4,709 bases of DNA, taken from NCBI RefSeq assembly GCF_003334785.1, contig NZ_QOWV01000045.1; one strand, 5' to 3'. Position numbers and translations under genes: made by a program. The notes beneath the pieces are model-generated. The model was not told the DNA's origin and searched no databases. It saw only the letters and a program-made list of their open reading frames with translations. The DNA comes from Escherichia coli. Lineage in GTDB: Bacteria > Pseudomonadota > Gammaproteobacteria > Enterobacterales > Enterobacteriaceae. Each line of letters begins with the position of its first letter. Within the stretch, counting starts at the first letter, position 1. Positions 821-4,709 of the stretch are shown one piece after another.

Positions 821-904
821 CTGATCGTTTAAGGAATTTTGTGGCTGGCCACGCCATAAGGTGGCAGGGAACTGGTTCTGATGTGGATTTACAGGAGCCA
901 GAAA

Positions 905-996
905 AGTGAAAACCCCGATAATCTTCTTCAACTTTGGCGAGTGCGAAAAGATTACCGGGGCTAACAAGAAACCGTATAGCCAACAATTCAGCTATG
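905..996 (-). ncRNA. copA: CopA antisense RNA (about 90 nt), complementary to the repA mRNA leader (CopT)
   Basis: On the minus strand there is a small 5' hairpin (972..979 pairing with 991..998). It is followed by a long imperfect stem-loop (913..925 pairing with 948..960, 12 bp with one mismatch, 22-nt loop). A U-rich tail then follows (plus-strand 901..912 GAAAAGTGAAAA reads UUUUCACUUUUC on the minus strand), making an intrinsic terminator. A sigma70-like promoter sits just upstream on the minus strand. The ends are approximate. Confidence 0.6.
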
Positions 997-2300: not shown

Positions 2301-2819
2301 TGCACCTCCCACCGCAAGCGGCGGGCCCCAACCGGAGCCACTTTAGTTACAACACACAAAGACAACCTCCAGAAAAACCCCGGTCCCGCGCAGAACTGAA
2401 ACCACAAAGCCCCTCCTCATAACTGAAAAGCGAGGCCGCCCCCGCCCGAAGGGCGGGAACAACATCGCTTTTAATTATGAATGTTGTAACTACATTGTCA
2501 TCGCTGCCAGTCTTCTAGCTGGAAGTCCTCAGTACACGCTCGTAAGCGGCCCTGACGGCCCGCTAACGCGGAGATACGCCCCGACTGCGGGTAAACCCTT
2601 GTCGGGACCACTCCGACCGCGCACAGAAGCTTTCTCATGACTGAAAGCGGGTATAGTCTGGCAGGGCTGGGGATGGGTAAGGTGAAATCTATCAGTCAGT
2701 ACCGGCTTACGCCGGGCTTCGGCGGTTTTACTCCGGTATCATATGAAACAACGGAGTGCCGCCTTCCATGCCGCTGGCGCGGCATCAGGATAACTGAAGA
2801 GTGACAGTACACATCAACA

Positions 2820-2890
2820 TCAAACAGACTTGTTAAGCAGTCTTTCAGGGTGTAAGGTGAAGACCTGTTAAACAGTCTCAGAGGTGTGTT
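2820..2890 (+). promoter_or_regulatory. Candidate promoter/operator of the toxin-antitoxin operon with three iterated 9-mers
   Basis: Three copies of AA(A/G)CAG(A/T)CT at 2822..2830, 2835..2843 and 2870..2878, in the 70 bp upstream of the antitoxin ATG, with GAGG (2881..2884) as ribosome-binding site. Iterated sites overlapping the promoter are typical of autoregulated toxin-antitoxin operons. The promoter hexamers were not confidently placed. Confidence 0.35.
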
Positions 2891-3142
2891 ATGCCCAGTA
2901 TCATTTTGTCTGACACCAGTGCAAGCGTCAGTGAACTGAAAAAAAATCCAATGGCGACAGTCAGTGCCGGAGAGGGTTATCCTGTTGCCATTCTTAACCG
3001 GAATCAGCCTGCATTCTACTGTGTTCCTGCTGAATTGTATGAAAGGATGCTTGATGCTATGGATGACCAGGAGCTGGTGAAACTGGTTACTGAACGCAGC
3101 AATCAGCCACTACATGATGTGGACCTGGACAGTTATTTATGA
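2891..3142 (+). CDS. Type II antitoxin, Phd/YefM/StbD-like (83 aa)
   Basis: ORF MPSIILSDTSASVSELKKNPMATVSAGEGYPVAILNRNQPAFYCVPAELYERM... has the N-terminal pattern of Phd/YefM-fold antitoxins and an acidic C-terminal tail. Its stop overlaps the toxin start in ATGA (3139..3142), the classic toxin-antitoxin coupling. Confidence 0.8.
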   Translation: MPSIILSDTSASVSELKKNPMATVSAGEGYPVAILNRNQPAFYCVPAELYERMLDAMDDQELVKLVTERSNQPLHDVDLDSYL

Positions 3143-3426
3143 CTTATACGGTTAAATTCAGGGATGATGCCCTCAGGGAATGGCTGAAACTGGATAAATC
3201 CGTTCAACAACAGTTCGCAAAAAAACTAAAAAAATGCAGCGAAAATCCTCATATACCTTCAGCAAAACTACGTGGATTAAAAGATTGCTACAAAATAAAA
3301 CTTCGTGCATCAGGTTTTCGTCTGGTCTATCAGGTGATTGATGACATGTTAATTATTGCGGTTGTCGCAGTAGGTAAACGTGAACGTAGTCATGTTTACA
3401 ATCTCGCCAGCGAGAGAATGAGATAG
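3139..3426 (+). CDS. relE: RelE/ParE-superfamily toxin (RelE/StbE-like mRNA interferase, 95 aa)
   Basis: ORF MTYTVKFRDDALREWLKLDKSVQQQFAKKL...KLRGLKDCYKIKLRASGFRLVYQVID...VGKRERSHVY is closely similar, from memory, to E. coli RelE (KLRGMPDCYKIKLRSSGYRLVYQVID...VGKRERSEVY). Same length as RelE and 4-bp overlap with the antitoxin gene. Confidence 0.85.
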   Translation: MTYTVKFRDDALREWLKLDKSVQQQFAKKLKKCSENPHIPSAKLRGLKDCYKIKLRASGFRLVYQVIDDMLIIAVVAVGKRERSHVYNLASERMR

Positions 3427-3435
3427 GGGGTGTTA

Positions 3436-3981
3436 ATGCTTTTAAGTTTTAGTGAGTTAGATGTTCTTATTTATCAGGGGAAGGTTGGGGGTTTATTTCG
3501 TGAAAGAAAAAACGAAAGGATTGCTACAGACATTGATTCCAGAAACAAGTCATCATCAAGCAGTCATGAATATGATTCAGTTTTATCATTTCTATTTATT
3601 TGTGATAATGGAAAAGAAATAAATGTGAATTTAACAAATTGGAATATTAACATATTTCCAGGTCAAGAGATTGTCATTTATTTTGTGGAAAACTCAAAGA
3701 AAAACAAAAAAATACCATACATGATAAAAAACAAAAGCACATCGGAAGTGACTAATAATGTTCAAGAAATGTATAAAGAGTTTTTTTATACATCATACTT
3801 CAAACTGATAATACCTTTCCTTTTAATCATTTCTTACTTTATGTCATCCATATCTGTGGCTATCATGTCATTCGTTTTATATGTCATAATCAGAAGAAGA
3901 ATAGGAAAAGATTTCTTTTCAGAAATAAAAAGGAAAAGGTTAAAAAAAGAAGATATCATGGGGTTAGAGCACGTAATATAG
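3436..3981 (+). CDS. Hypothetical small membrane-anchored protein (181 aa from ATG 3436), AT-rich orphan gene of unknown function
   Basis: Uninterrupted 181-183 codon frame in DNA of roughly 25-30% G+C (by eye), where stop codons should be frequent. GGGGG (3425..3429) lies 6 nt before ATG 3436; GTG 3430 is an alternative start. The product has a polar N-terminal region with a Ser run, one long hydrophobic segment FKLIIPFLLIISYFMSSISVAIMSFVLYVII, then a basic tail RRRIGK...KRKRLKK. I recognise no family. Confidence 0.7.
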   Translation: MLLSFSELDVLIYQGKVGGLFRERKNERIATDIDSRNKSSSSSHEYDSVLSFLFICDNGKEINVNLTNWNINIFPGQEIVIYFVENSKKNKKIPYMIKNKSTSEVTNNVQEMYKEFFYTSYFKLIIPFLLIISYFMSSISVAIMSFVLYVIIRRRIGKDFFSEIKRKRLKKEDIMGLEHVI

Positions 3982-4028
3982 GGGCGACAGGTCCTTATAA
4001 GGGACCGTCCAGGGACCGGAGTTCCATT

Positions 4029-4070
4029 GCTACGCCGGAACCGCCGAAATTTCCGGCGTAGCTCTCTCTT
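4029..4070 (+). terminator. Candidate intrinsic terminator after the AT-rich gene
   Basis: Perfect 12-bp inverted repeat GCTACGCCGGAA (4029..4040) / TTCCGGCGTAGC (4051..4062) with a 10-nt loop, followed by the pyrimidine/T-rich tract TCTCTCTT. A second hairpin, GGTCC-TTATAAG-GGACC, lies at 3990..4006. The U-tract is weak, so the terminator function is tentative. Confidence 0.35.
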
Positions 4071-4088
4071 GCCTGGACGTTCTGTTGT

Positions 4089-4126
4089 GGGGGGTGAGGG
4101 CCAATGGAACGAAAGCGTACGGTAAG
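4089..4126 (+). mobile_element. Terminal inverted repeat (38 bp) of a Tn3-family transposon, Tn1000 (gamma-delta)-like; transposon interior lies to the right
   Basis: GGGGGGTGAGGGCCAATGGAACGAAAGCGTACGGTAAG matches from memory the Tn1000 repeat GGGGTTTGAGGGCCAATGGAACGAAAACGTACGTTAAG at about 34 of 38 positions. It also carries the Tn3-family hallmarks: GGGG terminus, TGGAACGAAA core, ACG..TAAG inner end. Orientation puts the element outer end at 4089. Confidence 0.65.
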
Positions 4127-4507
4127 GGCTCCGTTTGGGAAACGGACAATATTGTACGGTTGCGTTATCGCGGTAGGGTGTACTCCCGCGCTATACGGTG
4201 TTTTCAGGATAATTGGTCTTAATCGGATAACCTAAATGCGATACAGCAAGAGCGACAACTTAAAAGCGATTAAACCTGCCGCCGCCAGAACGGTACAGTC
4301 CCTGACACAGGCACCACTGGTATAATCCAGTAAAGAGCATATGGAGAACTTATCATGTCGTCACGCAACTCTATACATGATTTTATAATGCTGCTCCCGG
4401 CGCTGCTGTTTGTTGGTAAGCGTACAGCCTGAACCGTCTGGTCAGAATCTGACGAATTAGACAAAGTGGTGTCCACCAAATAAGTAGTGGGAACCAAAGT
4501 GTCAGAT

Positions 4508-4636
4508 ATGCAGAAAAATGTGACTCCCGGCAGGCGAAAAGGCTGCCCTAATTATCCTCCCGAATTTAAACAGCAGCTCGTTGCTGCCTCCTGTGAACCC
4601 GGGATATCCATCTCAAAACTTGCTCTTGAAAAGTAA
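4508..4636 (+). pseudogene. Short OrfA-like fragment of an IS3-family transposase (42 codons then stop)
   Basis: ATG 4508 translates to MQKNVTPGRRKGCPNYPPEFKQQLVAASCEPGISISKLALEK and stops. The (Y/F)xxEFK...V...SIS..A pattern is the N-terminal HTH lead-in of IS3-family OrfA proteins, which are normally about 100 aa. A TGAACCG motif 78 bp upstream (4430) resembles an IS3-type end. Weak evidence. Confidence 0.3.
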
Positions 4637-4709
4637 CCGGCTCATTTAAACCGTCTGGTCTGTTTCCTCCGGCTCTACAAAAATAATGTCCATCATTTTT
4701 AATGGACAC

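Follow-up and report, generated by a model that had tools for sequence, protein, structure and literature searches.

A hairpin-rich spacer beside a plasmid orphan gene is probably a composite scar of Tn3-family transposon ends

Introduction

Solo sequences resembling the terminal repeats of Tn3-family transposons have been reported to be common (PMC4133298), and they belong with a described set of relics and miniature elements that includes IS101 and MITESen1 (PMC4133298, PMC13367494). The miniature elements, called TIMEs or MITEs, are short and are bounded by two terminal inverted repeats. One of them, MITEPsy2, has a published terminal repeat, described as closely resembling those of ISPsy30, which is a member of the Tn3 family (PMC3189936, Table 3). 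In Tn4430, the transposase of a Tn3-family element has been found to protect an internal region of about 30 bp within the repeat (PMC10250215). A different kind of sequence, the Rho-independent terminator, has a GC-rich stem, a loop of 3-8 nt and then a U-rich tract.

The spacer that we describe here, positions 3982-4088 of a 4,709-nucleotide stretch of Escherichia coli plasmid DNA (called the window throughout), resembles both. Like a terminator, it has a GC-rich perfect stem downstream of a stop codon and pyrimidines after it; unlike one, it has a 10-nt loop and a tail in which U and C alternate (UCUCUCUU) rather than an unbroken series of U, and many loci that carry the gene lack the hairpin. 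The likeness to the solo relics extends to its two neighbours, a solo Tn3-family repeat and a truncated TIME. The spacer itself contains one truncated repeat, not two, and so is not a TIME. We conclude that it is in all probability a composite scar, in which transposon debris is fused to the 3' flank of an orphan gene, rather than a designed element.

Results

The window is identical to E. coli plasmid pWP7-S17-ESBL-04_2 (NZ_AP022179.1; window coordinate equals record coordinate minus 1573). It contains, in order, an IncFII-type replicon (copB, 527-787; the CopA RNA, 904-995, minus strand, 101.7 bits in Rfam; and repA, 1068-1937), a Phd/RelE pair (2891-3426), an AT-rich orphan gene (3430-3981), the spacer, a Tn3-family repeat and, from about 4414 on, nested IS66-family elements. 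GC content is 0.23-0.33 in the orphan gene and 0.54-0.62 in the spacer. The orphan protein matched no Pfam or PADLOC family, and its only homologues, near-identical proteins from E. coli, share the ending ...MGLEHVI. This shared C terminus leaves unsupported the idea that the gene is truncated at the GGGG at 3981.

Every repeat that an earlier note on this DNA had reported in the spacer was found where it had been placed. In the small hairpin, a 5-bp stem pairs GGTCC (3990-3994) with GGACC (4002-4006); as RNA, the stem grows to 7 bp, including one G.U pair (-12.4 kcal/mol, z -3.7). The large hairpin is a perfect 12-bp inverted repeat, GCTACGCCGGAA (4029-4040) and TTCCGGCGTAGC (4051-4062), with a 10-nt loop, and on its own it folds at -22 kcal/mol (z -4.6). 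A 9-bp inverted repeat pairs GTTCCATTG (4021-4029) with CAATGGAAC (4102-4110), the second arm lying in the Tn3-type terminal repeat at 4089-4126. The direct repeat that had been given as GGGACC is actually 8 nt long (AGGGACCG, 4000-4007 and 4011-4018, + strand), and its second copy is absent from plasmids of the L018 type. To these we add an inverted repeat that had gone unreported, matching at 10 of 11 positions (GACCGTCCAGG, 4003-4013, and CCTGGACGTTC, 4072-4082), which surrounds the large hairpin.

Folding the spacer as RNA, a check that the note had proposed, bore out its strong self-complementarity. The + strand of 3982-4088 reached -52.2 kcal/mol, compared with -35.3 +/- 3.4 for shuffled sequences (z -4.97), and none of 200 shuffles folded as well; the minus strand was weaker, at -42.7 kcal/mol. 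When the 12-bp core was held fixed and the flanks were shuffled, 14 of 1000 sequences folded as well as the spacer (p about 0.014), and a reverse-complement match of at least 9 nt to the 38-bp repeat arose in 70 of 5000 shuffled spacers (p about 0.014). Chance clearly does not account for the large hairpin; for the outer pairings and the 9-mer, significance is only nominal.

We next describe how the parts of the spacer are distributed among plasmids, using BLAST against PLSDB with the repeat core masked, which matched 88 plasmids. The segment 3982-4012 (+ strand) directly follows the orphan-gene stop codon in all of these approximately 88 plasmids. The whole spacer, by contrast, occurs in 38 of the 88, and 4013-4088 is confined to those 38. 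The other plasmids, about 50 in number (L018, L019 and L020 among them), carry the orphan gene and 3981-4012 and then resume at window position 4164. Because they skip 4013-4163, we assign 3982-4012, a GC-rich 3' tail that holds the small hairpin, to the orphan gene, and regard 4013-4088 as a separate piece. The stretch 3981-4018 was considered as a fourth Tn3-type repeat since it starts with GGGG, but the idea was rejected: by eye the stretch is unlike Tn3-family repeats, and it travels with the orphan gene.

A search for an empty site found none. The short plasmids that lack 4013-4163 were examined in that role and rejected: they retain only an internal 46-bp piece of a MITESen1-like element that lies further to the right, and are therefore deletion derivatives. 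Their 152-bp deletion (from 4012/4013 to 4163/4164 in L018-L020) has its right edge exactly at position 38/39 of the MITESen1-like left repeat, which could be a coincidence or a repeat-associated event. The 38 longer plasmids share the same spacer and the same following repeat, and differ rightward by deletions. They are also the only plasmids with the junction segment 4013-4029 (+ strand), which contains GGAGTTC (4018-4024) and the 9-mer. All copies are 100% conserved over 4021-4070, but the plasmids are about 98-100% identical throughout, so this conservation is uninformative about function.

The large hairpin is formed by IR-A (4030-4061, + strand) together with G4029 and C4062, giving arms at 4029-4040 and 4051-4062. 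IR-A corresponds to positions 7-38 of a terminal inverted repeat of the Tn3 family, of the ISPsy30/MITEPsy2 type, whose tip points leftward. IR-A is identical at 32 of 32 positions to a GGGG-tipped repeat in an Enterobacter kobei plasmid (L006, NZ_AP022500.1), and enterobacterial copies of this repeat type agree with it equally, 32 of 32, over positions 7 to 38; over the full 38 nt the identity is 33/38. The core GCCGGAACCGCCGAAATTTCCG of the published MITEPsy2 and ISPsy30 repeats, which is printed for the MITEPsy2 terminal repeat, is identical in IR-A, and IR-A matches 26 of 34 positions of the published MITEPsy2 repeat (PMC3189936). BLAST of 4025-4066 against 72,556 plasmids returned 2,381 records from Klebsiella, Escherichia, Xanthomonas, Pseudomonas, Aeromonas and others. 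Most of these span CTACGCCGGAACCGCCGAAATTTCCG, with a 26-nt core that is identical or nearly so, and in every outside context that we read the core is preceded by GGGGTT or GGGGGT, apart from a degenerate GGGA tip in L017. The orientation of IR-A, tip to the left and interior to the right, follows from the asymmetry of its centre, CCGCCGAAAT.

Repeats of this type also bound a complete element. In the E. coli plasmid CP091389.1, two inverted ISPsy30-type repeats enclose a Tn3-family transposase gene (tnpA), a resolvase gene and one small gene in a 4.1-kb transposon flanked by a perfect 5-bp target duplication, TGATC/TGATC. This intact element implies that, within this host range, the ISPsy30-type repeat is part of a functioning transposon. 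A shorter arrangement occurs in the Salmonella plasmid CP074277.1 (L015, 3495-4437), where inverted ISPsy30-type repeats delimit an element of about 940 bp with only a small ORF and a gene for a RelE/ParE toxin. Its appearance is that of a Tn3-derived cassette that has no transposase and carries a toxin-antitoxin pair.

Compared with such elements, IR-A is incomplete. ISPsy30 and MITEPsy2 repeats have a GGGG(T)T tip, whereas in the window the GGGG is absent from its expected place: 4024-4027 reads CCAT and 4024-4029 reads CCATTG. The heptamer GGAGTTC (4018-4024) equals the tip of a palindromic copy in Tatumella (L022, GGAGTTCTACGCC...); in the window it is not contiguous with the body of IR-A but lies 6 nt from it, and it could be the IR-A tip split from its body by six inserted bases, or a coincidence. 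There is no inverted partner in the window or in the 13 kb of L002, and hence, unlike in the intact element of CP091389.1, no second flank to compare for a target duplication; the sole minus-strand match of this type in the window is the palindrome itself read backwards (4067-4030), and in the source plasmid the repeat occurs in one place only. Because it has neither a cleavage tip nor a partner, IR-A cannot transpose and is a dead relic.

The 27 nt that follow IR-A (4062-4088, + strand), which include the right arm CCTGGACGTTC of the 10/11 repeat, are presumably the interior of the IR-A element. They are always contiguous with IR-A and with the next repeat, in the 38 plasmids as well as in 8 metagenome contigs. 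With the 27-nt interior as probe for the parent transposon, masked BLAST against PLSDB matched only the module plasmids, and a pattern scan of 100,044 species-representative genomes found nothing. The only full-tip copy of IR-A beside this interior is in a 1.5-kb metagenome contig (L029), in which the repeat adjoins an interrupted IS66-family transposase gene and is joined to the 27 nt and the following repeat. We do not rely on this contig, which may represent either a genuine recombinant or a chimera assembled at the 32-bp repeat.

A functional alternative is that the hairpins, whatever their origin, act as a terminator or 3'-end stabiliser for the operon of the orphan gene and the toxin-antitoxin pair. 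The structures do begin right after the stop codon and, as described above, fold better on the + strand than on the minus strand; the 12-bp GC-rich stem is followed by TCTCTCTT, with 5 T in 8, and two one-sided changes in the middle helix preserve RNA pairing (C-G to U.G, and G.U to A-U). Against this, a terminator and promoter scan found no site in the spacer, and the 10-nt loop of the large hairpin, despite its stem of -22 kcal/mol, lies outside the limits of 3-8 nt. The small hairpin has no U-tract. An Rfam 15 scan of the window at E <= 1 returned nothing in 3982-4088, its only hits being CopA and rep pseudoknots at 904-1033.

The earlier note had suggested comparison between plasmids as a test of the hairpins. 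The segment with the small hairpin is kept in the approximately 88 plasmids, and its stem is altered in relatives (G3991C in L024 and C3993T in L019). The large hairpin is missing from about 50 plasmids that retain the orphan gene. Among five haplotypes from plasmids and metagenomes, we saw no compensatory change, in a set whose diversity is too low to give covariation any power; the outermost helix is broken in four of the five, and several changes break stems. Finally, descent from a transposon repeat fully explains the sequence of the hairpin. We therefore consider a functional terminator or stabiliser unlikely. An incidental role in termination is possible but weakly supported.

Another early suggestion, that the spacer is a protein-binding site, would hold only by descent: the retained part of IR-A corresponds to the inner region that Tn3-family transposases bind, and to the internal region of about 30 bp that is protected in Tn4430 (PMC10250215). 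Any present-day effect of the spacer would be a by-product; it might slow or stop transcription that runs on from the orphan gene, or might bind a cognate transposase.

The earlier note had also proposed a relic of an opposing Tn3-family repeat. A Tn3-family relic is indeed present, but it is the hairpin at 4030-4061 and not the 9-mer; it is of the ISPsy30/MITEPsy2 type and it points in the same direction as the repeat at 4089. The more specific form of the idea, that an earlier insertion left GTTCCATTG (4021-4029) behind as the remains of a Tn1000-type repeat facing the other way, draws on the exact 9-nt reverse-complement match between this sequence and the core of the repeat at 4089-4126, a match found in 1.4% of shuffled spacers. 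When the comparison was extended beyond the 9-mer into its flanks, however, similarity to the reverse-complemented Tn1000-type repeat fell to a random level (by hand count, 4 of 16 positions upstream and 4 of 13 downstream). Moreover, no minus-strand match of at least 21/38 to a Tn1000-type repeat was found anywhere in the window, and four of the nine bases, GTTC, may belong to the displaced IR-A tip GGAGTTC. An opposing repeat is thus extremely improbable, and we regard the idea as effectively refuted.

Two further Tn3-family ends follow the spacer. IR-B (4089-4126, + strand) is a complete 38-bp terminal inverted repeat of the Tn1000/IS101 type, with 30-31/38 identity to the two IS101 repeats (sequence from PMC13367494, Table S2); variants in L024 and L025 have the tip GGGGTTTGAGGG. 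It is solo: neither the window nor 13 kb of the uninterrupted relative L002 contains a partner for it. The plasmid pEC14_114 (L007) was considered as an intact Tn1000-like end and rejected, as the repeat there is likewise solo and the ORF that adjoins it, of 188 aa, is not recognisable as a transposase gene. A truncated MITESen1-like TIME (4126-4270, + strand) begins on the last base of IR-B, and its left repeat, IR-C (4126-4163), has the tip GGGC. It aligns to positions 1-165 of the 256 of MITESen1. A complete 236-bp copy with the same type of left repeat is present in L004 (3003-3238) and a MITESen1 copy in L005 (2940-3196), and 4124-4270 is matched by thousands of plasmids (IncF).

The window thus holds three Tn3-family ends of three types, IR-A, IR-B and IR-C, all on the + strand and within 135 bp, and no partner for any of them was found in the window or in the 13 kb of L002. 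Debris of this kind is well known, but this locus and its three-end stack are unannotated: none of the three ends is annotated in public records, and we found no description of such an arrangement, in which ends of three repeat types share one orientation over 135 bp.

To the right of the TIME, the segment 4271-4315 (+ strand) is left over from the 3' part of another RelE/ParE toxin gene, different from the first, with 95% identity to the interior of a RelE/ParE coding sequence in L005 and in pO157-like plasmids. Relatives free of the insertion sequences run past 4416 into a 77-aa ORF and then an acetyltransferase gene. This ORF (4356-4416, continued in L002 6956-7189) encodes one hydrophobic helix and is preceded by a sequence with a TATAAT motif; the window has only about its first 20 codons, since the IS66-family insertion interrupts it at about 4414. 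The inserted DNA consists of nested IS66-family elements (window 4414-4709, + strand, and L001 5987-11100): an ISEc22-like left end, starting GTAAGCG..., has its tnpA broken near 4635 by ISCro1, and the annotation of L001 lists ISCro1 and then ISEc22 genes.

Why is the inverted repeat in IR-A perfect? Positions 7-17 and 28-38 of the ISPsy30-type repeat are partly complementary by nature, so the 12-bp inverted repeat is best seen as an inherited property of the repeat and not as a separate invention. Ten natural ends that we examined have 4-9 complementary positions out of 11, the highest value, 9/11, being reached in L011, L015 and L016 (in two of the three on the resolvase side of an annotated transposon). 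The window copy reaches 11/11 through its inner 7 nt, GGCGTAG, which perfect the dyad, unlike the repeats of the intact elements examined, and G4029 with C4062 adds a twelfth pair.

Perfect dyads occur at two other loci. Palindromes of 44 bp are present in the E. kobei plasmid (L006, 2995-3038) and in Tatumella sp. JGM91 (L022, 6190-6233). In each, both arms consist of the 17 outermost nt of the ISPsy30-type repeat, and the 10-nt centre of that repeat separates them. Their tips change symmetrically, GGGG/CCCC in the former and GGAG/CTCC in the latter.

These palindromes bear on a further possibility, that a whole element bounded by repeats has collapsed and left the 12-bp palindrome of the window as its footprint. 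Recombination between the copy of TTCCGG(CGTAG) that lies inwards in the left repeat and the one that lies outwards in the right repeat would leave a hairpin whose right arm is the outer part of the other repeat and not interior. The two independent 44-bp palindromes (GGGGTTCTACGCCGGAA-CCGCCGAAAT-TTCCGGCGTAGAACCCC in L006; GGAGTT...AACTCC in L022) fit that prediction, and dyads of 11/11 are found only in these two, in the window module and in L029, compared with 4-9/11 in the repeats of intact elements. In the window, however, tip sequence follows neither arm, and the right side reads CTCTCT instead of AACCCC or AACTCC. By inspection, no 5-bp duplication flanks either 44-bp palindrome. The metagenome contig L029, if real, has the right side acting as interior joined to a full-tip repeat. 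Collapse is an improbable origin for the window hairpin, and we prefer its descent from the left end of an element, of which the adjoining 27 nt would be the interior.

Discussion

We propose that the spacer arose from transposon debris that became fused to a gene flank. Its left third (3982-4012), with the small hairpin, would be the orphan gene's own 3' flank, and the rest what survives of a Tn3-family transposon of the ISPsy30/MITEPsy2 type, or of a miniature derivative, at its left end, with 4030-4061 representing positions 7-38 of the 38-bp repeat and the next 27 bases probably the interior. In the sequence of events that we envisage, an element of the Tn1000/IS101 type landed within the first one, 27 bp in; a MITESen1-like miniature element then came to abut the inner edge of the second repeat; and deletions took away the remainder, with every partner repeat and the GGGG tip of the first repeat. 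The identities, orientations and distribution of the sequences and the lack of partners are observations; the order of events and the absence of a selected function are what we infer.

Several observations fit this scheme poorly. The GGGG tip of IR-A is absent, neither PLSDB nor the representative genomes yielded a parent with the 27-nt interior, and the one contig with a full-tip copy is possibly chimeric. In addition, the extra pairing of the flanks and the 9-mer (p about 0.014 for each) go unexplained by simple decay.

A more speculative reading would group the perfect-dyad copies in the window, E. kobei and Tatumella as a class of hairpin scars, made when ISPsy30-type elements erase themselves across their built-in dyad, with a possible action in cis as target-immunity beacons or decoys. 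We think this unlikely. If it were true, such scars, like the solo ends of the Tn1000 and MITESen1 types, would retain the part of the repeat to which transposase binds and could shield the replication and maintenance region of the plasmid from Tn3-family insertions. More generally, relics that still bind transposase could affect where Tn3-family resistance transposons land.

For annotation, the consequence is that an apparent regulatory hairpin is a truncated transposon end, and that a spacer followed by a transposon end is a stack of three Tn3-family ends. Recognising such relics prevents false calls of terminators or operators, and flags 32-38-bp repeats that are able to seed recombination or assembly chimeras. 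It also helps in reconstructing how the toxin-antitoxin and orphan-gene module has moved among IncF, IncI, IncK and IncB/O plasmids. The module of Phd/RelE pair, orphan gene and spacer (window 2637-4126) lies just 3' of unrelated replicons, as seen in comparison with L012, L013, L014, L018 and L019: IncFII in the window, and IncI-gamma/K1, IncB/O and IncK2/Z elsewhere. This implies that it moves between plasmid backbones. The orphan protein itself has a metagenome variant (P0004, 198 aa) in which a lipoprotein-like signal sequence (MKNILLISLLSILILSCS...) takes the place of its N-terminal part.
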